Virus record (IMG/VR): IMGVR_UViG_3300044305_003112
Coordinates: 9,273-73,272 of that record
Reading direction: 5' to 3' (one strand)
DNA length: 64,000 bases
From: a virus
Taxonomy: Duplodnaviria > Caudoviricetes
This document shows, one piece after another, positions 3,535 through 56,100 of the stretch. Within the stretch, counting starts at the first letter, position 1. Every line of letters starts with the position of its first letter. A model generated the notes under the pieces. It saw only the letters and a list, made by a program, of their open reading frames with translations. It had not been told where the DNA came from and did no database searches. The position numbers and the translations under genes were made by a program.

Positions 3535-3542
3535 TATTTATA
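3535..3542 (+). promoter_or_regulatory. putative late promoter motif TATTTATA
   Basis: 13 nt before ATG 3556; the motif recurs in the gaps before late genes. Confidence 0.55.
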
Positions 3543-3555
3543 ACAAAATTGTATT

Positions 3556-4356
3556 ATGATAAGTTTAACCCAATTATTAAGTGAAGTAGAAAGTGGACCA
3601 AAAGCTATAATTTTAGCAGGAGCACCCGGTGCTGGTAAAGGTTATATTTTAAAAGGATTAGATTTAGGAGGATTAAAAATATTAAATATAGATGATATTT
3701 ATATTCAAAATTTAAAAAATGCAAATGTATCTTTAAATTTAAAAAAATCTTCACCTGAAGAAAGAAGTCTATCAGCCAAAGCAATGGCAGCAGCTAATAA
3801 AGAATTTAAAGGTAATGTTGCTTCTACAATTGAAAATAAAGAATCATTCATATTAGATGGCACAGGCGCTTCATATAATCAAACTGTTAAATTAAAAAAT
3901 GAATTAGAAGAAGCAGGATATAATGTATTTATGCTTTATGTTTATACTGATTTAGAGCGTTCATTAAAACAAAATCAAGATAGATTTGAAAAATCAGGTG
4001 GTAAAGATAGAAGTTTAGCCCCAGCTATAGTAATGCGTACATGGAATTCAGTAACTAAAAATCATAGTCCTTATAAAGAATTATTTGGTAATAATTTTGT
4101 TTCAGTTGCTAATACTTTAGAAGATGAAAAAATGGATAATTTAGAAGATATAATAAAAACCTATTTAGATCCTTTTAAACCTCAAAATACAAAACCTAAA
4201 GATGAAAAAGCTAAAGCAAGATCTGCTAAATCAAAAGCAGAATTAGAAGCAGATTTAAAATTATTATTATCTGACGAAGGGGTAAAAGATATTATAAACA
4301 CATCAGTATCAAGGGAAGAAGCACAATCAAAAATAAAGACATTTTTAACTAGATGA
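3556..4356 (+). CDS. P-loop kinase (zeta-toxin/AAA_33/Pnk-kinase-like) with a short N-terminal leader ending LLSE
   Basis: ILAGAPGAGKG Walker A, LNIDD, FILDGTG, LYVYTDLE..R lid region. Confidence 0.8.
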   Translation: MISLTQLLSEVESGPKAIILAGAPGAGKGYILKGLDLGGLKILNIDDIYIQNLKNANVSLNLKKSSPEERSLSAKAMAAANKEFKGNVASTIENKESFILDGTGASYNQTVKLKNELEEAGYNVFMLYVYTDLERSLKQNQDRFEKSGGKDRSLAPAIVMRTWNSVTKNHSPYKELFGNNFVSVANTLEDEKMDNLEDIIKTYLDPFKPQNTKPKDEKAKARSAKSKAELEADLKLLLSDEGVKDIINTSVSREEAQSKIKTFLTR

Positions 4357-6359
4357 ATGAACTAACAAAAGAATTAGTAAGAGGATTAATGGAAGTAGAT
4401 GATACTAAAGTAGTTGCTCTTTATGGAGGTGGTTTTAAACCCCCCATAAGAGGACACTTTAATGTTGTTAAACAAGCTTTAGCTGAATACCCTGAAATTG
4501 ATGAATTCCGAATTTTTGTTGGAGGATTAGAAAGAGATGGAATAGATCAAACAGAATCTTTATTAATTTGGGACATTTATAAAAATTATTTACCTCAAAA
4601 AGTAAAAATTATACCAGCTAAAAATCCAATTGGAGATATTTATAGAGCTCCTAAAAATGATCCTGAATTAGAATTTTATTGGGTTATAGGAAAAAGAGAA
4701 GGAGAGGAAGATGATGAATATGATATAAAAACAAGATCAGCCCCATTAATAACAAACCCAGATAAATACCCAAATTTAAATTTAAAAACTATAACAACAT
4801 CAGACTCAAATATGAGAGCTAGAAATGCTAGAAAAGCTTTAACATTAGATTCTGATGAGTTTAAAAATTTTTTACCTCATGAATTAAGTGATGAAGATAA
4901 AGAAGAAGTATATAATATAGCATCTACAAAATTAATAAATGAAAATATTACTAAAAATCAATTAGATTCAATTGAATCATATGCTGATGGTTTATTTAAT
5001 AAATTAGGAATTGACATCGATTTTACAAAACATTTTTTTGATAGATTAAATGACATTAGAAATAAAAAACCAATATCAGTAGCTGAATTAATAGGTATAT
5101 TTAAAAAATTATATAAAAAACACGGTAAACCTTTATCAAAAACTGAAGATGATTTAGAAGCTGTTGTAAAAGATTTTAATAAAAATATTAATATTCCTTT
5201 TGTAATTGATGTAGATCAAAATGGAATAGATATGACTGCAAAAACTATAATGAGGAAACAAGATTTTCAAACATCTAATCCAGTTATCCCTTTAGAAGAA
5301 AATGCAACATATTCAGATTATATAGATTATAAAGGAAAAATAAAAGATTTAACTAAACATATGATAAAAATGGGTTTAAATATTTTACCCCTACCTAAAG
5401 TAATATTTTATCATAGTGAAAAATCAAATGCTAAAAATTTTTTCGGAAAAACTGCATATTATAACCCTGAAACTAAAACTATAGTATTATATACTGAAGG
5501 TAGACATCCAAAAGATATAGTAAGATCATTTTCTCATGAAATGATTCATCACATACAAAATTTAGAAGATAGATTAGGTGATATAATGACTACAAATACT
5601 AATGAAGATGATGAATTAGATGCAATAGAAAGAGAAGCATATCAAGAAGGGAATATGATTTTTAGAAATTGGACAGATTCTATTGATGGTGAAATTACTA
5701 CTGACATAGAAGAAGGAGGTTCATTAATTCCTATTAAAGTCGAAAAAACAAAAAAGGATCCATTTGGACTAAATGCTTATGCTTTAGAATTAGCTAAAGG
5801 TTTAGAAGAAACTATTGATTTACCTAACCATGATGGTAAAGCGGCTCCCTATGGATCAGGTTATAAACCTATAACAGAAGATGAAAAATATACTATATAT
5901 TCTGATATGGATGGTGTAATAGCTGATTTTGATACTAGATTTAAACAATTCTCAGATGGAATACCACCATCAGATTATGTAGATAAATTTGGTTTAGAAA
6001 AATTTTGGGAATTAATTGATGACGAAGTAGGAGTTAGATTTTGGACAGGAATTGAATGGATGCCAGGAAGCCAAGAATATTGGGATTACATTAAAAAATA
6101 CAATCCCATATTACTATCAGCTCCCTCACGTAATAATGAATCTAGATTAGGAAAAAGAGTATGGGCAAAACGTAATTTACCGGGTGTTAAATTAATTTTA
6201 GCTTTTGCTAATAATAAAAAAAATTATGCTAATGAAAATTCAATATTAATTGATGATAGAGAAAAAAACATCAATCAATGGAAAGAAGCAGGTGGAATAG
6301 GAATTTTACATACTAGTGTAGCTTCAACTATTGCTCAATTAAAAGAATTAGGTTTATGA
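4353..6359 (+). CDS. multidomain protein: HIGH-family nucleotidyltransferase + FTKHFFDR domain + HExxH metallopeptidase-like domain + HAD 5'(3')-nucleotidase-like domain
   Basis: YGGGFKPPIRGH (aa 24-35), FTKHFFDRLND, FSHEMIHHIQ (H395), IYSDMDGVIADF (D518), ILIDDREKN. Confidence 0.8.
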   Translation: MNELTKELVRGLMEVDDTKVVALYGGGFKPPIRGHFNVVKQALAEYPEIDEFRIFVGGLERDGIDQTESLLIWDIYKNYLPQKVKIIPAKNPIGDIYRAPKNDPELEFYWVIGKREGEEDDEYDIKTRSAPLITNPDKYPNLNLKTITTSDSNMRARNARKALTLDSDEFKNFLPHELSDEDKEEVYNIASTKLINENITKNQLDSIESYADGLFNKLGIDIDFTKHFFDRLNDIRNKKPISVAELIGIFKKLYKKHGKPLSKTEDDLEAVVKDFNKNINIPFVIDVDQNGIDMTAKTIMRKQDFQTSNPVIPLEENATYSDYIDYKGKIKDLTKHMIKMGLNILPLPKVIFYHSEKSNAKNFFGKTAYYNPETKTIVLYTEGRHPKDIVRSFSHEMIHHIQNLEDRLGDIMTTNTNEDDELDAIEREAYQEGNMIFRNWTDSIDGEITTDIEEGGSLIPIKVEKTKKDPFGLNAYALELAKGLEETIDLPNHDGKAAPYGSGYKPITEDEKYTIYSDMDGVIADFDTRFKQFSDGIPPSDYVDKFGLEKFWELIDDEVGVRFWTGIEWMPGSQEYWDYIKKYNPILLSAPSRNNESRLGKRVWAKRNLPGVKLILAFANNKKNYANENSILIDDREKNINQWKEAGGIGILHTSVASTIAQLKELGL

Positions 6360-9148: not shown

Positions 9149-9997
9149 ATGTTAAAAGAGCGTAAACTTACCAAAGCAGAACTTGATAAGCGTGAGGACA
9201 TCATCATGAATATGAAGAAAAATAAACGCGATTTAGTTAAAAAATATGGTAAGGACGCTGAAGCAGTAATGTATGGTAGAGCTACTAATATAGCTAAAAA
9301 AACAACAGAATCAATGGCAATTAATAATCGATTAAGAGAAATGGTCAAAACAGCTTTATCAACTCCTAAAGTAAAAGAAGCAATAGGTAAGGAAGATGGT
9401 GAAGTAGATGATGATCTATCAGTTGGGGTTTATACTGAAAACCCACCTAAAAAGAAAAAAACTAATGAAGATTTACAATTAGATGAAAATGAACAATTAG
9501 TTCAATCTTGTTATATATCAGAAACTATAAATGAAGGCCATAAAGGAAAATTAGATTTAGAAGGAAAAATGGCTAGAAAGCAATTAGCAAAAATAGCTAA
9601 ATATGCTCAACATTTATTTCATATGTTAGATAATAAATCTCAATTAGAAAGTTGGGTTCAAGCTAAATTAACAAAAGCATCAGATTATATGAGCTCTGTT
9701 AAGCATTATTTAGAAGGTGAAGCATTAACATCAGCACCTCCTGTTATGAATGAAGATGAAGCTATTAAAGATATAGAAGGAAGAGCGCTAAACATTGGTG
9801 ATGTAGTAAAATGCCCAGATAATAATGAGTACCAATGTATGTATTCATATTCTGAAAAATTACCATTTTTATCACCATATGATGGTAAAAAACCTGATTT
9901 AATGAATAAAATGTATTTTAAAGATAAACCAGAATTTGCTAAAAGATTAGAAAAAGTAAAAGATTATTCTCAAACAAAAGGTGGATTTATTAAGTAA
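9149..9997 (+). CDS. modular hypothetical protein, probable capsid-internal protein
   Basis: A basic N-terminal module (ERKLTK...VMYGRATNIAKK) and a helical EGKMARKQL..LESWVQAKLTKASDYM module, separated by xKE/xNE linkers. Confidence 0.75.
   Translation: MLKERKLTKAELDKREDIIMNMKKNKRDLVKKYGKDAEAVMYGRATNIAKKTTESMAINNRLREMVKTALSTPKVKEAIGKEDGEVDDDLSVGVYTENPPKKKKTNEDLQLDENEQLVQSCYISETINEGHKGKLDLEGKMARKQLAKIAKYAQHLFHMLDNKSQLESWVQAKLTKASDYMSSVKHYLEGEALTSAPPVMNEDEAIKDIEGRALNIGDVVKCPDNNEYQCMYSYSEKLPFLSPYDGKKPDLMNKMYFKDKPEFAKRLEKVKDYSQTKGGFIK
9485..9517 (+). repeat. 33-bp dispersed repeat, copy 1 (encodes ENEQLVQSCYI)
   Basis: 31/33 nt identical to 11982-12014. Confidence 0.8.
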
Positions 9998-11576: not shown

Positions 11577-12674
11577 ATGAGCAAAAACACAGGTAAAAAA
11601 GATTGCAATTGTGGATGTGGTGGGTGTAAAACTAAATCTATAGGTCCTATATTGAGGGAAAATAAAGTATTTAGTACTCCATTGTCTAATGATTTAAAAT
11701 TTCATATAGACAATAATATACCGTTAAACGAAACAAAACATCGTGTGGGTTCTAAAAAATTTAAAAAATTAATTAATGAAGCTTCTGCATTATACTCACG
11801 TTTTATTTTAGATTTAAATAAAAAAGATGAAAAGATAATAAAAGAAGGAGTTGGATTTGGAAATAAAATGGGGGGTAATAATTTTACACCACAAAAAGAA
11901 ATACCTAGAGATAGATCTAGAAAAGATAATATAGGCAGATTAAAACCAAATATGTCAACACCAGGAATAAAATCATTATCAGAAAATGAAAAATTAATTC
12001 AATCTTGTTATATAAAAGAAGATAAAGATTATTATGAAAAAGCAAAAGATTTAGAGGGAAAAAAACAATCAATAATAGATCAACTAGAAAAATTATTAGA
12101 CTCTTTAACACCCCCAACATCAGATAATTTAGAAGCAAGACAAGGTTTAAAAGCAGCTTTAAAAAGTAATAATGTAGTAATGATGAAAAAAGCTTTAGAT
12201 CATTGGAGAGAAAAATTAGATCCTAGATCAAGTTTTACAGATGATGATTGGGAAAATTTTTATGCAGATTATGATTTACCTGAAGGTAAAATAAAAGAAT
12301 CACAAGATTTAGAAACAGAAGCTAAACAATATTTTTTAAAAAAGTTTATGGATGGTGAAATTAAAAAATTACCTGATCTTAAAGATGTTAAAGCAGCTTA
12401 TATGAAATTAAAATTAAAAGGAGAGGTAAATGAAGCTGAAGAAGATGAAAAAGAAGGAAAAAAAGTTACTGTTGATGGTGAACCATTTAAAAAACATAAC
12501 ATAAAAAATCTTCAAGAAATGGACCCAGTAAAATGGGATTTACAAAATGGAATAGCAGCTCAATGGGTTCCTGACAAAGTAGGTCATACAGCTGATGGAG
12601 ATATAACTGATGATCCTGGAGATGGATATGATACTAACAATAAAGATACTATAAACGAAAAATTAATCAATTAA
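11577..12674 (+). CDS. modular hypothetical protein, probable capsid-internal protein
   Basis: N-terminal CNCGCGGC cluster and many LRE/LNE/IKE/LSE/VNE/LQE/INE sites. Confidence 0.75.
   Translation: MSKNTGKKDCNCGCGGCKTKSIGPILRENKVFSTPLSNDLKFHIDNNIPLNETKHRVGSKKFKKLINEASALYSRFILDLNKKDEKIIKEGVGFGNKMGGNNFTPQKEIPRDRSRKDNIGRLKPNMSTPGIKSLSENEKLIQSCYIKEDKDYYEKAKDLEGKKQSIIDQLEKLLDSLTPPTSDNLEARQGLKAALKSNNVVMMKKALDHWREKLDPRSSFTDDDWENFYADYDLPEGKIKESQDLETEAKQYFLKKFMDGEIKKLPDLKDVKAAYMKLKLKGEVNEAEEDEKEGKKVTVDGEPFKKHNIKNLQEMDPVKWDLQNGIAAQWVPDKVGHTADGDITDDPGDGYDTNNKDTINEKLIN
11982..12014 (+). repeat. 33-bp dispersed repeat, copy 2 (encodes ENEKLIQSCYI)
   Basis: 31/33 nt identical to 9485-9517. Confidence 0.8.
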
Positions 12675-19836: not shown

Positions 19837-20697
19837 ATGCGTGTAAAACATTCAAAGTTCAAAAATACAGGTCTTTTATTTGAGCTTTTAGTAAGAAAGA
19901 TTACGTCTGATACTTTAAATGGTAAAGATTCACCAGCAGTAAATATTTTAAAAAAATATTTTGTTAATACTGAATTAGGTAAAGAATATAAACTATATGA
20001 AACAGTATTTAAAAAATCCGTGGTTGTAACTGAAAGTAAAGCAAATATTGTATTAAATACAGTATTAGAAACATCAAGAAAATTAAATAGAAGTTCTTTA
20101 AAAAGAGAAAAATATAATATAATTAGAGAATTAAGGGAAAAATACAATATAGAGGATTTATTTAAGATGAATATAAGTAATTATAAACCTTTAGCAGCTC
20201 TATATACATTATTTGAAATTTACAACTCACAAGATATAACAGACCCAAATCAAATAGTAGATAATAAAGTAACTCTTTTAGAACATTTAACATCTAAAGA
20301 AGTTAACAAATCAGAAGTTAAACACGATATTATAGAAGAATTTAAATCATATGATAAAGATTTAAGAATTCTTACTTACAGAGTATTATTAGAAAAATTT
20401 AATGATAAATATTCTGACTTAAATAAGTCCCAAAAATCAATTTTAAGAGAATTTATTAATAATGTAGATAATACTAATAAATTAAAAGAATTTTATAATA
20501 ATAAAATAATTGAATTAAAAAGGAATATTTTATTAGAAACTAAAAAAGTAAAAGATAGAGCTACAAAAATAAAATTATTAGAAGTTAACAAATACATTGT
20601 TGAAATTGATAAAAGAAAAAAAATCAATAATAATAATTTAGTAGATTTATTACAATATTATAGTCTTTTTGAAGAATTACAAAAGTCAAATGGGTAA
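19837..20697 (+). CDS. helical hypothetical protein in the head module
   Basis: 286-aa ORF directly after the portal gene, with its own late motif. Confidence 0.85.
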   Translation: MRVKHSKFKNTGLLFELLVRKITSDTLNGKDSPAVNILKKYFVNTELGKEYKLYETVFKKSVVVTESKANIVLNTVLETSRKLNRSSLKREKYNIIRELREKYNIEDLFKMNISNYKPLAALYTLFEIYNSQDITDPNQIVDNKVTLLEHLTSKEVNKSEVKHDIIEEFKSYDKDLRILTYRVLLEKFNDKYSDLNKSQKSILREFINNVDNTNKLKEFYNNKIIELKRNILLETKKVKDRATKIKLLEVNKYIVEIDKRKKINNNNLVDLLQYYSLFEELQKSNG

Positions 20698-22566: not shown

Positions 22567-23172
22567 ATGAAAAAAATTTTAATAGAAACATTACCATTTG
22601 TACCTTCTAAAATTTCATTAACAGAAGGTAAAAAATCAGAAAGAGGAAATCCTATAGTTGAGGGTATTTTAGCTACTTGTGAAGTTAAAAATGGAAATGG
22701 AAGATATTATTCAAAAGATCTTTGGCAAAGAGAAATGGATAAATATCAAGAAGTAATAAATGATAATAGAGCAGTAGGAGAATTAGATCATCCTGAATCA
22801 TCTGTTGTTAATTTAAAAAATGTTTCACATAACATTACTGATACTTGGTGGGATGGAGACAATGTAATGGGTAAAATAGAAATACTTCCTACTCCATCAG
22901 GTAATATTTTAAAATCACTTATTGATAGTGGTATAACAGTGGGTGTTTCTTCAAGAGGAATGGGTTCATTAAAACCAATGGGGGAAGTTCAAGAAGTACA
23001 AGATGATTTTGAATTATTATGTTGGGATTTTGTTTCAACTCCTTCAAACCCAGGTTCATATATGCAATTAGTAAAAGAAGGTCTTGATTTTTCTTCAAAA
23101 AACCAATATGAAAAATTAAATTCTATTATTTATGAAATCCTTTGCTCAAAAGGAAGTTGTCCAATTTCATAA
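22567..23172 (+). CDS. gp21: prohead protease (T4 gp21-like)
   Basis: NGNGRYY, AVGELDHPE, NVSH (catalytic His), GVSSRGMGS (catalytic Ser), WDFVSTPS. Confidence 0.96.
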   Translation: MKKILIETLPFVPSKISLTEGKKSERGNPIVEGILATCEVKNGNGRYYSKDLWQREMDKYQEVINDNRAVGELDHPESSVVNLKNVSHNITDTWWDGDNVMGKIEILPTPSGNILKSLIDSGITVGVSSRGMGSLKPMGEVQEVQDDFELLCWDFVSTPSNPGSYMQLVKEGLDFSSKNQYEKLNSIIYEILCSKGSCPIS

Positions 23173-24812: not shown

Positions 24813-26483
24813 ATGAGTCAATTAAATCAATTATTAGAAAGCGCTAATCCGTATAAATCACTACAAAGTGATGCGGCTAGATTAGCAAACAAGTGGGCTA
24901 AGACAGGCTTACTTGAAGGCTTGGATAATGAAACATCGAAAAATAATATGTCGATGTTATTAGAAAACCAAGCAAAACAATTGGTGACGGAAGCTTCTAA
25001 TACTGGAGGAGGATCAGGTGCTGGTACATTTACTGCTGGTACAGGTGCTCAATGGGCAGGTGTTGCTTTACCATTGGTAAGAAAAGTATTTGGACAAATC
25101 GCAGCGAAGGAATTCGTTTCGGTTCAACCAATGAACTTACCTTCTGGTCTAGTATTTTACCTAGACTTCCAGTATGGAACTAACCACTCACCATTTACAA
25201 GCGGAAATTCACTTTATGGTGATACTTCAGCAAACTTTGGAAATACTAACACAGGTGGTCTTTATGGAGCTGGTAGATTTAACTATTCTACAAACCAAAC
25301 AAGCTCTATACAAGTAGCAGCTGCAAGTGTATATTCAGCTTCATGGTCAGACTTAAATTTTGATGGACAGTATTCAGCTTCAGCTGTTGCTGATGAATTT
25401 GACATAGTTCAATTCCCAGTCGCTAATTTAACTAGCTATGATGAAGAAGCAGTTAGAGCATTCCAATTATTTTCACAATCAGGTGATGGTAATACAAATA
25501 TTACAGCTTACCCACAATTTACAAGAATTAGTGGTACTAACTTACTATTTGTTATAACATCATCTCATGCTACAACAGAAACAGGCGGAAACGCTACATT
25601 AGCTTGTAATGTTTCTTACTCTTTAGCACCAACTATGGCAGATATTGGTGATTTTGAAGAAGGTAACACTAATTTAAATGGTGATAATAATCCAATTACT
25701 ATCCCTCAAATTAATGTTCAGTTGAGAAGTGAAGCAATTGTTGCTAAAACTAAAAAGTTAAAAGCTGTTTGGACTCCTGAGTTCGCTCAAGATTTAAATG
25801 CTTACCATTCATTAGATGCAGAAGCTGAATTAACTTCTATTATGAGTGAGTATATTTCATTAGAAATAGACTTAGAAATTTTAGATATGTTGATTGAATC
25901 AGCAGCTGCTGGAACAGAAATATGGTCAGCTAAAAATAATAGAGCGATCACAGCAGGTGGTACAACAGATGCACAACATATATCAGCTAATGGTGTATTC
26001 TCTGATCTTGGATTCTATAATTCACAAGGACAATGGTTCCAAACTTTAGGAACTAAAATCCAAAAGTTGAGTAATATTATTCATCAGAAAACACTTAGAG
26101 GTGGTGCTAATTTCTTAGTATGTTCTCCATCAGTAGGTACAATCTTAGAATCAATTCCAGGATTTGCTGCTAATACAGATGGTGATGCTGCTAAAATGAA
26201 TTATGCATTTGGTGTGCAAAAAGTTGGACAATTAAATGGTAGATATCAAGTTTACAAGAACCCATATATGACTGAAAACCAAATTTTACTTGGATTCAGA
26301 GGTTCTCAATTCTTGGAAGCAGGTGCAGTATTCTCACCTTACGTACCATTAATTATGACTCCAATGGTGTACGATCCAAATACTTTCGTACCAAGAAAAG
26401 GTCTATTAACTCGTTATGCGAAGAAAATGCTAAGACCTGAATTCTACGGTATAATTAAAGTAGCTGATTTAGATACTATATAA
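24813..26483 (+). CDS. gp23: major capsid protein (T4 gp23-like)
   Basis: KWAKTGLLEGL, LLENQ, PLVRKVF, VSVQPMNLPSGLVFYLDF, KLKAVWTPEFAQDLNAYH, YVPL, GLLTRYA. Confidence 0.98.
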   Translation: MSQLNQLLESANPYKSLQSDAARLANKWAKTGLLEGLDNETSKNNMSMLLENQAKQLVTEASNTGGGSGAGTFTAGTGAQWAGVALPLVRKVFGQIAAKEFVSVQPMNLPSGLVFYLDFQYGTNHSPFTSGNSLYGDTSANFGNTNTGGLYGAGRFNYSTNQTSSIQVAAASVYSASWSDLNFDGQYSASAVADEFDIVQFPVANLTSYDEEAVRAFQLFSQSGDGNTNITAYPQFTRISGTNLLFVITSSHATTETGGNATLACNVSYSLAPTMADIGDFEEGNTNLNGDNNPITIPQINVQLRSEAIVAKTKKLKAVWTPEFAQDLNAYHSLDAEAELTSIMSEYISLEIDLEILDMLIESAAAGTEIWSAKNNRAITAGGTTDAQHISANGVFSDLGFYNSQGQWFQTLGTKIQKLSNIIHQKTLRGGANFLVCSPSVGTILESIPGFAANTDGDAAKMNYAFGVQKVGQLNGRYQVYKNPYMTENQILLGFRGSQFLEAGAVFSPYVPLIMTPMVYDPNTFVPRKGLLTRYAKKMLRPEFYGIIKVADLDTI

Positions 26484-39676: not shown

Positions 39677-41872
39677 ATGGCAGATATTTTACTTTCTCCC
39701 GGAGTCGCAACAAGAGAATTCGATAAATCACAATTAACAAAACAACCAATTCAATATGGTGGTGCTATAATAGGTCCTACAGTAAAAGGTATAAAAAATA
39801 TACCTAAATTAGTAACCAATTATTCTGAGTATCAAGCTCATTTTGGTGGTGCCTTTACAAGTGGATCTTTTGATTACACATATTTTACATCAATTTCAGC
39901 ATATAACTACTTCCAAAATGGAGGAAGATCTTTGTTAGTAACAAGGGTCTCAGATAAAGCATTTTCAGAAGCAACATCAACACGAATTCAAAGTGGAGAT
40001 AAGTCATTATTATCAACAGCATCATTATATTCAGGGGGTTTAGACATTCAACCTTTCTTTACAGAAGCAACAACACATACATCAGCTTCATTTACATTAA
40101 ATGGAATAGAATTTAAATTAACTAGTAGTACAACAGCTCAGGATTGGGCTACAGAAAACACATCTACACAAATAATAGTTCCAATAAAATCAACAGTTCC
40201 TTTAACAGCTTATGAATTTTCAACTTTTTTAAATGCAAGTCAATCTGTTTCTACTTACTCAATTTTAAATGGATTAACAGCTAGTCAAGCTGGTGATTGG
40301 TTAAATATAACGTCTACATTAACAGGAAGTAATTATGGTTTTTATGGTAATTCAAGCTATATTACATCTCAAAGCGCAACACAATATTTTATATCTGGTT
40401 CAAGTAGAGCTTCTTTTGAATTAGAAACATTAGGCCAAGGAGAAATAATGAATAATGATAATACTACTTTAGGTAATTATCCTGATGGTACTTATTTTGC
40501 TAATACCATAGGCATCACAACACCATCAGCTCAAAATCCTTTAGGTGCCCAAAATTCTTTAGTAAGTGGCTCAAAAGATAATTTAAGATGGGAAATTACA
40601 AATCCTGATGTTAAAAAAGGAGTATTTAGTGTTGTTATTAGACAAGGTAATGATAAACAAAAAGCAAAAACAATATTAGAAACATTTGCTAATGTTTCAT
40701 TAGATCCTAAAGCTTCAAATTACATTGAAAGAATAATAGGTAATCAAAAACATACTTTGATGGGATCTGGGGCAAATGTTTATTTACAAGTAACGGGTAG
40801 TTACAAAAATGCATCAGATTATGTAAGAGTTAAAAAAGTATACATGAAAACTCCTGACTATCTTGATAGTGATGGGGTAGCAAAAACAAAATACACAGCA
40901 TCCATACCAATAGCTCAAAGTGGGGCATTTGGGGGTGCAACAGGACGTTTATTTACAGAAGGAGCAACAGCTAAATATTATAATAACATTACTAATACTA
41001 ACACTCAAGGTATAACAGCAGCTAGTTACACAGATGCTATAAATTTATTAGCTAACCAAGATGACTATAAGTATAATCTAATAACAACACCTGGTTTAAT
41101 TAAATCAGAAACAGCTCACTCTACAGTATTAAATACTTTACTTTCAAATACAAAAGAAAGAGGAGATACAATGGCTTTAATAGACCCTGTATTATACAAC
41201 TCAACAATGGCATCAGCAATTACACAAGCTGAAAGTGTAAATTCATCATACGCTGCTATGTATTGGCCTTGGTTACAAGTAACAGATCCTGACACAGGAC
41301 AATTAGTTTGGGTACCAGCATCAGTAATGGTTCCTGGAGCTTATGCTTATAATGATAAAATAGGTCAACCTTGGACAGCACCAGCAGGTAAAAAAAGAGG
41401 AAAATTAGGATCTGTTAGACAAACAGAAAGAAAGTTAACTAATGCTAATAGAGATACTTTGTATGTAGGTAAAGTTAATCCAATAGCAACATTCCCCGCA
41501 GCAGGGGTAGTTGTGTTTGGACAAAAAACATTACAAACTAAATCATCAGCACTTGATAGAATAAATGTTAGAAGATTATTAATTGCACTTAAAAGTTTTA
41601 TATCTCAAGTAGCGGATACATTAGTATTTGAACAGAATTCAATCCCAACTAGAAATTCATTTTTATCAAAAGTAAATCCATATTTAGAATTTGTAAAGCA
41701 AAAACAGGGATTATATTCATATAAGTTAGTGATGGATGAAAGTAATAATACAGCAGATGTGATTGATAGAAATCAGATGGTAGGACAAATATTTATTCAA
41801 CCAACAAAAACAGCAGAATTTATTTATTTAGATTTTAATATATTACCAACGGGAGCAACATTCCCATCATAA
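39677..41872 (+). CDS. gp18: tail sheath protein 1 (gp18-like, 731 aa)
   Basis: SPGVATREFD, YFQNGG, YWPWL, WTAPAG, VNPI..FP..GVVVFGQKTL, RINVRRLLI, LVFEQN. Confidence 0.95.
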   Translation: MADILLSPGVATREFDKSQLTKQPIQYGGAIIGPTVKGIKNIPKLVTNYSEYQAHFGGAFTSGSFDYTYFTSISAYNYFQNGGRSLLVTRVSDKAFSEATSTRIQSGDKSLLSTASLYSGGLDIQPFFTEATTHTSASFTLNGIEFKLTSSTTAQDWATENTSTQIIVPIKSTVPLTAYEFSTFLNASQSVSTYSILNGLTASQAGDWLNITSTLTGSNYGFYGNSSYITSQSATQYFISGSSRASFELETLGQGEIMNNDNTTLGNYPDGTYFANTIGITTPSAQNPLGAQNSLVSGSKDNLRWEITNPDVKKGVFSVVIRQGNDKQKAKTILETFANVSLDPKASNYIERIIGNQKHTLMGSGANVYLQVTGSYKNASDYVRVKKVYMKTPDYLDSDGVAKTKYTASIPIAQSGAFGGATGRLFTEGATAKYYNNITNTNTQGITAASYTDAINLLANQDDYKYNLITTPGLIKSETAHSTVLNTLLSNTKERGDTMALIDPVLYNSTMASAITQAESVNSSYAAMYWPWLQVTDPDTGQLVWVPASVMVPGAYAYNDKIGQPWTAPAGKKRGKLGSVRQTERKLTNANRDTLYVGKVNPIATFPAAGVVVFGQKTLQTKSSALDRINVRRLLIALKSFISQVADTLVFEQNSIPTRNSFLSKVNPYLEFVKQKQGLYSYKLVMDESNNTADVIDRNQMVGQIFIQPTKTAEFIYLDFNILPTGATFPS
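40674..40749 (+). repeat. 76-bp tract identical between the two sheath genes, copy 1
   Basis: base-for-base identical to 42752-42827. Confidence 0.92.
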
Positions 41873-42180: not shown

Positions 42181-43971
42181 ATGGCAGAAACTTTAATATC
42201 ACCGGGTGTATTAGCAAGAGAAAATGATCAATCCCAAATAACGGCTCAACCAGTTCAAGCAGGTGCTGCTATAATAGGTCCTACAGTAAAAGGCCAAAAA
42301 TATATTCCAAAATTAGTAACTAGTTATTCTGAATATTTAGCAAATTTTGGAAGTACTTTTATTAGTGGATCAGATCAATTTTCTTTCTTTACATCAATAT
42401 CAGCATATAATTACTTCCAAAATGGAGGAGCTTCATTATTAGTAACAAGAGTTAATTCAGGTTCATTTACAGCTGCTACTAGTTCGTTTATTAGTGGTAG
42501 TTCAGGAAGTCAAAATATATTTCTACTAGAAACTCTAGGTCAAGGAACATTATTAAATAATGATGATGGTACTTATGTATCTTCAACAGCGGGAACAGTT
42601 AATGGTTCTCCTACAACAACAGGTTCAAATAATACACTATCAAGTGGATCAGCAGACAATGTAAGATGGGAAATAGCTAATCCAAGTATTAATAATGGAG
42701 TATTTAGTGTTATTATTAGACGAGGTGATGATACTAAAGAATCTCCTACAGTATTAGAAACATTTGCTAATGTTTCATTAGATCCTAAAGCTTCAAATTA
42801 CATTGAAAGAATAATAGGTAATCAAAAGAAAGAAAAAAGAGGAAGTGGAACTGATATATATCTTCAAACAACAGGTAGTTATAGAAATGCTTCAAATTAT
42901 GTAAGAGTTAAGGAGGTAAAAGTTAAAACACCTGATTATTTTAATAATGCAGGAACTCCAAAAGCAAAATATACAGCATCAATACCATTAGCTCAAAGTG
43001 GAGCGTTTGGTGCAGCATCAGGAGATATATTTTATGCTGGGGTACAAGCTAGATTTTATGATCAAATAACAGCAACAAATACACAAGGACAAAATGCAAC
43101 AGATTATTATGATGCTGTTAATTTGTTAGCAAATAGAGATGACTTTAGATATAATTTAATATCAGCACCTGGATTAGTACATTCCTTCTCAACAGTACCA
43201 GCAGGAGGATATAGCCATGCTACTATTTTAAATACTTTAATTTCAAATACAGAAAATAGAGGAGATAATATAGTAGTACTTGATGTTTCAGGTTATAATT
43301 CATCAGTAGCAGCTACAGTAACAAATGCTTCATCTATTGATTCTTCATATGCTGCAACATATTGGCCTTGGTTACAAATAAGTGAACCAGATACAGGACA
43401 ATTAGTTTGGGTACCAGCTTCAACAATGATACCAGGAGTTTATGCTTACAATGATAATGCTGGAGAAGCTTGGTTTGCACCCGCAGGTATCAATAGAGGT
43501 GGATTAGGAACAGTCCAAATGGCAGAAAGAAAATTAACTCAGAAAAATAGAGATAGTTTATATGTAGGTAAAGTTAATCCAATAGCAACATTCCCAGGAA
43601 GTGGTGTTGTAGTATTTGGACAGAAAACTTTACAAACAAAAGCAAGTGCTTTAGATAGAGTAAATGTTAGAAGATTATTAATAACATTAAAGAATTTTAT
43701 TTCGCAAATAGCTGACACATTAGTATTTGAACAAAATACATCAGCAACAAGAAATCAATTTTTATCACAGGTAAATCCATATTTAGAAAGTGTACAACAA
43801 AGACAAGGATTGTATGCATTTAAAGTAGTAATGGATGAAAGTAATAATACAGCAGATGTAATAGATAGAAACCAATTAATAGGTGCTATTTATTTACAAC
43901 CTACTAAAACAGCTGAATTTATTTACTTAGATTTCAATATTTTACCAACAGGAGCAACATTCCCGGCATAA
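42181..43971 (+). CDS. gp18: tail sheath protein 2 (gp18-like, 596 aa)
   Basis: SPGVLAREND, YWPWL, WFAPAGINRG, GQKTL, RVNVRRLLI, LVFEQN. Confidence 0.96.
   Translation: MAETLISPGVLARENDQSQITAQPVQAGAAIIGPTVKGQKYIPKLVTSYSEYLANFGSTFISGSDQFSFFTSISAYNYFQNGGASLLVTRVNSGSFTAATSSFISGSSGSQNIFLLETLGQGTLLNNDDGTYVSSTAGTVNGSPTTTGSNNTLSSGSADNVRWEIANPSINNGVFSVIIRRGDDTKESPTVLETFANVSLDPKASNYIERIIGNQKKEKRGSGTDIYLQTTGSYRNASNYVRVKEVKVKTPDYFNNAGTPKAKYTASIPLAQSGAFGAASGDIFYAGVQARFYDQITATNTQGQNATDYYDAVNLLANRDDFRYNLISAPGLVHSFSTVPAGGYSHATILNTLISNTENRGDNIVVLDVSGYNSSVAATVTNASSIDSSYAATYWPWLQISEPDTGQLVWVPASTMIPGVYAYNDNAGEAWFAPAGINRGGLGTVQMAERKLTQKNRDSLYVGKVNPIATFPGSGVVVFGQKTLQTKASALDRVNVRRLLITLKNFISQIADTLVFEQNTSATRNQFLSQVNPYLESVQQRQGLYAFKVVMDESNNTADVIDRNQLIGAIYLQPTKTAEFIYLDFNILPTGATFPA
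42752..42827 (+). repeat. 76-bp tract identical between the two sheath genes, copy 2
   Basis: base-for-base identical to 40674-40749. Confidence 0.92.
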
Positions 43972-56056: not shown

Positions 56057-56057
56057 A

Positions 56058-56089
56058 TTTGGATATTTAAAATATTTTTCGTATTTTAA
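56058..56089 (+). promoter_or_regulatory. Bacteroidota sigma-A-type promoter for the replication block
   Basis: TTTG(56058-61)-N20-TATTTTAA(56082-89). Confidence 0.65.
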
Positions 56090-56100
56090 AAATAAAAGTT

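Follow-up and report, generated by a model that had tools for sequence, protein, structure and literature searches.

Phages and conjugative elements encode multi-enzyme polypeptides known as polyvalent proteins, which were described by Iyer, Burroughs, Anand, de Souza and Aravind in 2017. In the sections of that paper considered here, they are defined by having between two and fifteen conflict-type domains per polypeptide, unrelated to one another and for the most part enzymatic; delivery together with the DNA and proteolytic release are predicted for them, and the authors liken them to the polyproteins of RNA viruses (PMC5512222). Another kind of cargo is known from phage T4, whose prohead protease gp21 cuts after the Glu of L/I-X-E (PMC9026906) and whose internal proteins possess a 10-amino-acid (aa) leader, MKTYQEFIAE, that directs them to the prohead core and is then cleaved off at a site of this kind (PMC9026906, PMC8442874). 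In the giant phages phiKZ and SPN3US the gp21 homologs (gp175 and gp245, respectively) cut many head and ejection proteins after Glu, with multi-cut propeptides (PMC10052503). The subject of this work is P0001, a 77-kDa polyprotein of 668 aa translated from an open reading frame at 4353..6359 (plus strand) of a viral DNA stretch of 64,000 nucleotides (nt), positions 9,273 to 73,272 of IMG/VR record IMGVR_UViG_3300044305_003112, here called the window. The source contig measures 73 kb with an estimated completeness of about 45%, and the phage is T4-like, marine and uncultured. All coordinates below are those of the window; the operon of P0001 with its parts and the genes of the terminase, the head and the tail lie on its plus strand.

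P0001 comprises four folded domains of different superfamilies and two mini-modules, and its relatives reach 1421 aa. It shares with polyvalent proteins a zincin hub of the MPTase-like type, extreme domain shuffling and probably a BECR-type putative RNase, with Zeta-kinase and ART modules (the latter as sub-threshold ART-PolyVal matches) in relatives, a repertoire which resembles that of known packaged effectors (PMC5512222); its phage has a portal, a terminase and a late-type motif upstream of the operon. In the same sections of that paper, release is credited to peptidases within the chain and a junction grammar is not mentioned, whereas in P0001 every junction carries the motif of a trans-acting prohead protease and the N-terminus a targeting-type leader. 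The backbone of P0001 (HIGH nucleotidyltransferase and zincin) and its HAD nucleotidase were not found among the domains discussed there, and the Pfam PolyVal models remain below threshold on P0001. The likeness to T4 IPI, IPII, IPIII and Alt consists of a short leader ending L/I-x-E, a gp21-type protease in the genome (PMC9026906, PMC8442874), predicted products of 14-21 kDa, genes located away from the head module and diverse, fast-evolving cargo. However, T4 cargo consists of single proteins with one cut beside the leader, while P0001 would give up to four enzymes and short conserved peptides from one chain, and relatives of up to about 1400 aa hold more modules. Substrates of the giant-phage proteases differ by their motif (A/S-x-E) and because mapped cuts, self-cleavage aside, remove only N-terminal propeptides (PMC10052503); unlike what is proposed for P0001, they do not free several folded enzymes from one chain. 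The closest cultured phage is Flavobacterium phage vB_FspM_immuto, here immuto (NC_055915; 36% identity over 88% of the query), where gp088 ("NMN adenylyltransferase") and gp087 ("5'-3' deoxyribonucleotidase") share with the present locus synteny, an S77 protease and an upstream late-type motif. Unlike P0001, gp088 starts with an additional domain of Pol-beta type and contains other inserts; the HAD domain is encoded separately behind a leader of its own, and gp088 carries the annotation of an ordinary metabolic enzyme.

On balance, and judging from sequence and predicted structure, P0001 is probably a polyvalent protein that is packaged in the head and divided by the prohead protease into separate effectors. 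It would be expressed late along with the Zeta-like kinase encoded upstream, and would enter the core of the assembling prohead by means of its N-terminal leader of the capsid-targeting type. A gp21-type serine protease acting in trans would then cut after the Glu of [L/I/V]-x-E in every inter-domain linker, releasing four enzymes of 14-21 kDa (a nucleotidyltransferase of PPAT/NMNAT fold, a RelE/RegB-like putative RNase, a small zincin peptidase and a HAD phosphatase of dNMP type) and three short peptides. The pieces would remain in the head, enter the next host with the DNA and act ahead of any phage gene expression, with host takeover or counter-defence as their likely role. What was observed are the domain folds, the linker positions, the conservation and modularity of the motif, the leaders, the protease gene and the shared promoter-like motif; that transcription is late, that the protein is packaged, cleaved and injected, and that its domains are active enzymes, is what we infer.

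Two elements of this scheme are already published, namely DNA-delivered phage multi-enzyme proteins freed by proteolysis (PMC5512222) and leader-targeted, gp21-processed head cargo (T4 internal proteins and Alt). What appears to be new is a strict junction code that matches a trans-acting prohead protease at every module boundary, its use across a very large, hyper-modular family in marine T4-like phages, and the predicted release of several folded enzymes together with conserved short peptides from one chain; a description of the P0001 family was not found in the literature searched. If the scheme is true, the T4 principle of expression, packaging and processing would no longer be confined to single internal proteins but would cover natural polyproteins of several enzymes, and the release of polyvalent proteins would have a concrete mechanism, in which a prohead protease acts in trans and reads a simple junction code. 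The family comes from abundant marine phages; its members, mostly unannotated or, in the one cultured relative examined, labelled as a metabolic enzyme, are candidate effectors of host takeover or anti-defence in the first minute of infection. The junction rule would let mature products be predicted from sequence alone, and immuto offers a cultured model.

Domain architecture of P0001

The AlphaFold2 (AF2) model of P0001 was built on a 49-sequence alignment and has a mean pLDDT of 79; a second model, of residues 198-447 (pLDDT 88.8), was the basis for the VIA-align search. Folded domains are predicted at residues 20-191, 201-296, 326-444 and 514-668. Outside them there are two helices (2-12 and 473-485), a loop (192-200) and linkers which are disordered or of low confidence (306-319, 446-472 and 486-510). 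The four-domain layout with a leader and spacers, which the first-pass annotation had proposed from the letters and their translations, is borne out by this parsing. In sequence comparisons, Pfam gave sub-threshold matches only on P0001, a PDB sequence search gave nothing useful, and a profile search against the PDB returned PPAT/NMNAT as the sole match, by way of the N-terminal motif.

The chain begins with a leader (residues 1-14, 4353..4394; MNELTKELVRGLME/, where a slash here and below marks the presumed cut), an amphipathic helix (AF2 helix 2-12) that ends in LME. It is followed by a HIGH-type nucleotidyltransferase of PPAT/NMNAT fold (residues 20-191, 4410..4925), which in Foldseek resembles PPAT with E 5e-6 and TMt 0.74-0.79. 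The HIGH superfamily is recognized by a Rossmann-like fold and an N-terminal (H/T)xGH motif, represented here by GGGFKPPIRGH, and Pfam CTP_transf_like is matched below threshold in 30 of 45 relatives. At the place of the C-terminal nucleotide-binding motif of ISxTxxR type, present as [MVI]SGTNAR in about 175 other family members, P0001 and its close clade carry MR[AG]RNAR (for example MRARNAR against MSGTNAR), so activity or substrate may differ in that clade. The change is located at 4812-4832 (residues 154-160), and the clade includes P0002-P0006, P0119 and P0121.

Domain 2 (residues 201-296, 4953..5240; FTKHFFDRLND ... AKTIMRK) is probably BECR-like, more precisely RelE/RegB-like, and a candidate RNase, modelled with pLDDT above 90 in the model of residues 198-447. 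In VIA-align it was matched by a coherent set of BECR-fold RNases, RelE (Z 6.3, 75 aa, 2.8 A), the RelE of P. horikoshii (Z 6.0), T4 RegB (Z 5.9, 112 residues), YafQ (Z 5.2) and HigB2 (Z 5.1). A BECR fold, as in RelE, RegB and colicin D, is recognized by an N-terminal helix followed by a sheet of four to five strands, with a His in the helix and a Ser/Thr in the last strand; in domain 2, H227 (in a helix) and T298 (past the last strand) are invariant among ten relatives of the same architecture. Domain 2 also matches PHROGs 23027 and 14518, and Pfam REGB_T4 is matched weakly in three of 45 relatives. A Pfam PBECR match was not found, and Foldseek gave no match with domain 2. An RNase-like fold is likely but not secure, the Z-scores being middling; the RelE and RegB matches lend some, if weak, weight to what the first-pass annotation had offered as a guess about the FTKHFFDR domain.

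The third domain is a zincin metallopeptidase-like one (residues 326-444, 5328..5684) with HEMIH at 395-399 and E426/E428 downstream. Its VIA-align matches are Wss1 (Z 7.8), SPRTN (Z 6.9), ArdC (Z 6.7) and jannalysin (Z 6.0). The elements follow one another as helix 326-339, strands 349-353, 368-371 and 376-380, helix 386-404 with HEMIH and helix 420-444 with E426/E428, an order which agrees with the published MPTase core of an N-terminal helix, a three-stranded sheet, the HExxH helix and a second helix with Glu (PMC5512222). The domain falls outside the Pfam model MPTase-PolyVal, matched in one of 45 relatives (E 0.002). Foldseek gave weak minigluzincin and IrrE matches only, and the ESM Atlas returned unnamed viral clusters only, among them a zincin-like one in which 14% of the proteins carry Peptidase_M78.

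Between the zincin and the last domain lie the two mini-modules, KDPFGLNAYALELAKGLEE/ (residues 466-486, 5748..5810), a KDPF helix (AF2 helix 473-485) ending LEE486, and TIDLPNHDGKAAPYGSGYKPITE/ (residues 487-509, 5811..5879), which contains the recurrent peptide DGKAAPYGSGY and ends ITE509. The chain closes with a HAD domain resembling 5'(3')-deoxyribonucleotidases (residues 514-668, 5892..6356), assigned by PHROG 2643 (E 3.7e-26) and by Foldseek matches to human cdN/mdN (E about 2e-5, TMt 0.55-0.65). Nucleotidases of the NT5C group show the HAD fold with an NT5C-type cap and the motif I DxDG(V/T), as does P0001, where the motif reads D518-M-D520-G-V (DMDG at 518-521), and Pfam NT5C reaches 17.9 bits against a cut-off of 24.8. 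The identities read earlier from short motifs were in this way confirmed for the nucleotidyltransferase by the PPAT fold and for the HAD domain by fold and PHROG 2643, and a zincin fold was found around HEMIH.

Protease-type sites at the module boundaries

P0001 contains nine [LI]xE motifs against 9.6 expected, and at least nine occur in 65% of shuffles; since the count is at chance level it is not a signal, an excess of the motif was rejected as evidence, and only position and conservation are non-random. Linkers make up about 15% of the residues, and yet six of the nine sites (E14, E197, E316, E454, E486 and E509) are in predicted loops or linkers, while the other three (E45, E51 and E665) are inside secondary-structure elements of folded domains. 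The earlier claim that domain boundaries coincide with (L/I)-x-E sites had cited exactly these six, and all of them proved to lie in AF2 linkers. The first junction, INE197 (4935..4943), is in the loop 192-200; LEE316 (5292..5300) and IEE454 (5706..5714) are in the disordered stretches 306-319 and 446-472. In the ten relatives of the same architecture E197, E316 and E486 are invariant, with L, I or V at P3 and variable linker residues nearby, and E316 is nearly invariant over the 49 sequences. E479 of the KDPF helix is invariant in the ten as well.

Of the sites around the short spacers, which were also part of the earlier claim, E486 is conserved as described, IEE454 is not conserved and ITE509 is absent from the relatives of the same architecture. 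Those relatives close the zincin with LNE (WTDSLNE/), aligned with residues 444-446; P0001 reads IDGE there, and its IEE454 is probably a substitute for the family site. ITE509 is the conserved C-terminal site of a recurrent mini-module of 20-25 aa, DGKAAPYGSGYxx[LIV]xE/, which ends in the site in 18 of 18 cases and is usually preceded by one too. The NxxDGKAAPYGSGY peptide, placed between sites of protease type, would be freed as a peptide of about 22 aa.

The family is very large, with more than 8000 members from metagenomes. A word-indexed search found 5193 proteins at E <= 0.001 and an exhaustive search 8492 matches at the same threshold among representatives at 50% identity, with lengths from about 380 to 1421 aa. 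A census of modules was made on the 150 best representatives, ranked by similarity to P0001, and gave zincin in 146, nucleotidyltransferase in 138, HAD in 63, the KDPF helix in 57 and domain 2 in 28. The nucleotidyltransferase and the zincin are the backbone, with variable cassettes between and after both, and the zincin is the most conserved module, although its share is partly a retrieval bias, since the query itself has a zincin and similarity to the query set the ranking. Cassettes found in relatives include Copper-bind (plastocyanin-like), DUF5661, DUF6934, GNAT, sub-threshold ART-PolyVal and, in P0261, a Zeta-like kinase. A plastocyanin/azurin-type cassette occupies residues 209-291 of P0014 between junction sites (Pfam Copper-bind, E 3.6e-16), an unexpected type of cargo.

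Insertions and deletions relative to P0001 fall at about 197, 316, 446-454 and 486-509, and in 55 distinct events the inserted segment is bounded by [LIV]xE at both ends, as in ...ALEE/ELTQ...KLYE/NTTY and ...VVNE/AKDP...NVNE/EITK. P0006, from which domain 2 is missing, has the fusion ...LINE/NATY... precisely at the Glu. When core limits were set by AF2 secondary structure, independently of the motif, the 30-aa flanks of the cores contained [LI]xE in 70-93% of the 150 representatives versus 32% for random 30-mers, and the exceptions were mostly V/M-x-E. Architecture breakpoints taken from all-against-all alignments carry it in 41% of cases versus 9% expected. The control motifs [LI]xD and [LI]xK were not enriched in the flanks and were at expectation at the breakpoints. 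The same domains were thus met in other combinations in relatives, as the first-pass annotation had suggested looking for, with swaps precisely at [LIV]xE/. At homologous junctions the codons differ among the three loci compared, which places the constraint on the protein and makes a recombination signal fixed in the DNA of the junctions, a possibility considered, look unlikely.

It could be argued that P0001 acts as one uncleaved multi-domain enzyme in which [LIV]xE belongs to the linkers for structural or evolutionary reasons, for instance as module ends that were inherited and make recombination easier. The chance-level total of the motif would fit this, fusions of nucleotide-metabolism enzymes are common, and some polyvalent proteins are delivered whole, e.g. 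the N4 virion RNA polymerase and ArdC (PMC5512222). We hold it to be unlikely in view of the specificity of the motif against its controls, its recurrence at the ends of unrelated modules, the differing junction codons and its presence at the ends of leaders of stand-alone genes, where linkers do not exist.

A second question is which protease would act at the junctions. The logo of 419 distinct contexts shows L58/I22/V15/M3 at P3, N37/K17 at P2 and E at P1, and a variable P1' (N26, E11, G10, S10). Zincins typically select on P1'. The conserved aliphatic P3 and Glu at P1 with a variable P1' are the gp21 pattern (PMC9026906), and this speaks against self-processing, where the embedded MPTase-like zincin would cut the junctions before packaging, in the head or after injection. 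The idea draws on the zincin being the most conserved module (146 of 150, a share raised in part by the retrieval bias mentioned above), on its intact HExxH and downstream Glu and on its fold, which is of the Wss1/SPRTN/ArdC type known for self-cleavage or from polyvalent proteins (PMC5512222). Nevertheless, stand-alone kinase, HAD and domain-2 genes bear a leader and a site without a zincin in cis, and stand-alone zincins have a cleavable-looking leader themselves, so that self-processing is distinctly unlikely.

Each module carrying its own [LIV]xE/ end could be inserted, deleted or split off without loss of processing, and cleavage by the prohead protease would in this manner explain the extreme modularity. 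A wider proposal, to which an even chance may be given, is a general cargo grammar of marine T4-like phages: any module ending in [L/I/V]-x-E/ could be joined into a polyprotein bound for the head or be separated from it behind a leader of 10-15 aa, giving thousands of combinations of injected effectors freed by the capsid maturation protease, and the conserved excised peptides (DGKAAPYGSGY and the KDPFGLN helix) would either signal packaging or be bioactive themselves. Its modules would comprise nucleotidyltransferase, RNase-like, zincin, kinase, ART, GNAT, plastocyanin-like and many unknown ones.

Leaders, stand-alone modules and the prohead protease

Among 117 representatives with an N-terminal nucleotidyltransferase, 90 start with a leader of 14-17 aa ending [LIV]xE, with the consensus MNQLTKFLVDGILNE/. 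The likeness of the P0001 leader to the T4 capsid-targeting sequence (CTS) MKTYQEFIAE is weak; it is strong for stand-alone homologs of domain 2. If the modules are head cargo, a separately encoded module needs its own leader and site, and this prediction held. For stand-alone domain 2 the motif precedes the core in 28 of 31 distinct N-termini, at least ten of which start in a T4-CTS-like way, such as PANV1 GD1_42 (MKSFEQYIEE/), P0309 (MITFREYLAE/), P0311 (MLTFKQFIIE/) and also MLTFKEFKLLNE/. Stand-alone zincins have leader and motif in 46 of 50 cases, typically MVKLSQLLKE/IYAEP or MKPITE/NSTY. The separate HAD of immuto has its own leader, MKKVMGNLADLLLE/, and the kinase encoded upstream of P0001 begins with MISLTQLLSE/. 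Leader and KDPF helix as alternative targeting signals were rejected, eight representatives having neither and complementarity being absent.

The N-termini of the capsid protein (MSQLNQLLES, 24813-24842), of the kinase (MISLTQLLSE, 3556-3585) and of the stand-alone zincins P0347-P0376 (MVKLSQLLKE) are alike, perhaps because this group of phages has a targeting peptide in common.

The enzyme to which the junction code would correspond is encoded in the window. It is a gp21-type prohead serine protease (Peptidase_S77, 22567..23172), with a Pfam PF03420 score of 109 bits against a cut-off of 27 and PHROG 207 at E 7e-60; an S77 protease is encoded also by immuto, PANV1 and phiM12. The major capsid protein of Gp23 type (24813..26483; Pfam Gp23, E 7e-76 from residue 79) serves as a reference substrate, with sites LLE51/N and VTE60/A just ahead of the conserved Gp23 fold, which we take to resemble LTE/AEIGG of T4. 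A scaffold-like protein of the window carries LNE/, IKE/ and IVE/ sites. All computational checks which the first-pass annotation had proposed for its protease-released polyprotein, and several more besides, were favourable, and on comparative grounds that reading is supported.

Two further proteins of the window are rich in the motif. The one at 19837-20697 (286 aa, between portal and protease) has 16 [LI]xE against 5.1 expected, is kept in immuto (284 aa, same position) and is probably a prohead core protein degraded at maturation. The other, at 11577-12674 (365 aa), whose N-terminus is Cys-rich (CNCGCGGC), has ten where 4.2 would be expected and may be further processed cargo of the same cluster.

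Gene neighbourhood and the case for packaging

Upstream of P0001 the genes follow in the order GIY-YIG-type gene, primase, PD-(D/E)XK exonuclease and a P-loop kinase of Zeta-toxin/AAA_33 type (3556..4356; Pfam Zeta_toxin, E 1.9e-15). The kinase gene is translationally coupled to the polyprotein gene, the ATG of which overlaps the upstream stop (ATGA); in the relative P0261 a Zeta-like kinase is fused to the N-terminus of the polyprotein instead of being a separate upstream gene. The order is kept in the relative L004/L005 (56% identity) and also in immuto, which at the homologous locus has primase, exonuclease and then the polyprotein-family gene. A megablast of 20 kb of the window against a phage collection did not find a close cultured relative.

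A promoter-like motif of late type, TATTTATAA, lies at 3535..3544, in the 21-nt gap ahead of the operon of kinase and polyprotein. Apart from the kinase-P0001 operon and several unknown genes, those with the (A)TATTTATAA or ATATTTATAA-type motif 11-35 nt upstream encode the portal, adaptor, sheath, tube, hub and tape measure. On the plus strand 13 of the 21 occurrences of (A)TATTTATAA are intergenic (at 3535, 6943, 8265, 15085, 17906, 19812, 28927, 36930, 39635, 43988, 44578, 45666 and 48222), intergenic DNA being about 3% of the window. The motif is kept before the kinase gene of L004 and has a near match before the immuto operon. It does not occur before the SSB and exonuclease genes; these are preceded by a TTTCGTAT-type sequence, and sequences of that type lie ahead of replication genes (56057-56100 and 59800-59849). 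Because the motif is common to structural genes, the kinase-P0001 operon is predicted to be late. The T4 late promoter TATAAATA is not enriched in the window (29 occurrences versus 23 expected) and none is upstream of the operon; it was rejected as the operon promoter, the relevant motif being its near-complement TATTTATAA on the coding strand. The TATTTATAA class, found ahead of structural genes and cargo-like operons, and the TTTCGTAT class are candidate late and early/middle promoters, respectively, of the phage group, a pattern which recurs in L004 and approximately in immuto.

Several points weigh against a packaged and processed P0001. Its gene adjoins those of primase and exonuclease and is 12-18 kb away from the head genes, and the promoter assignment is based on motif sharing only. 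A leader is missing from 25 of the 117 representatives (one case, checked on its contig, is genuine), and when a domain is fused upstream the leader-like helix stays internal (P0227 and P0261), so that it could belong to the nucleotidyltransferase module. The gp159 protein of phiM12, with a C-terminal domain-2 homolog, has no virion annotation, though its neighbour gp157 has one. The Ser and Thr of the ISxTxxR-like motif are gone from P0001's own clade. Phosphatases of dNMPs and enzymes like PPAT/NMNAT classically belong to cytoplasmic metabolism. In the literature searched, virion proteomics was not found for immuto, PANV1 or another phage with a family member.

Some of these points would suit a late cytoplasmic polyprotein, cut by the prohead protease in the cytoplasm or at the prohead surface, whose enzymes serve the same cell in nucleotide recycling and RNA turnover with no packaging at all. 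The functions of the HAD and nucleotidyltransferase domains are appropriate to metabolism, the neighbours are replication genes and some members have no leader. The T4 prohead protease also offers a precedent: one of its targets, late in infection, is a CD-NTase of the host cytoplasm (PMC12991175), and its activity is therefore not strictly limited to cargo. Such a polyprotein would, however, leave the conserved leaders without a role, notably the T4-CTS-like ones on stand-alone modules, and separate genes would serve equally well without a protease; it is considered very unlikely.

The remaining landmarks of the window are the large terminase (16329), the portal (17927), two tail sheath genes, the tail tube, the baseplate hub and the tape measure. 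The gene at 1363-1818 has the PHROG label "NAD synthetase", yet homing-endonuclease PHROGs match it as well and the syntenic gene of L004 matches Pfam SegE_GIY-YIG, so it is probably a mobile endonuclease gene. The tail sheath paralogues stand side by side at 39677-41872 (731 aa) and 42181-43971 (596 aa), and both are strong matches to PHROG 23.

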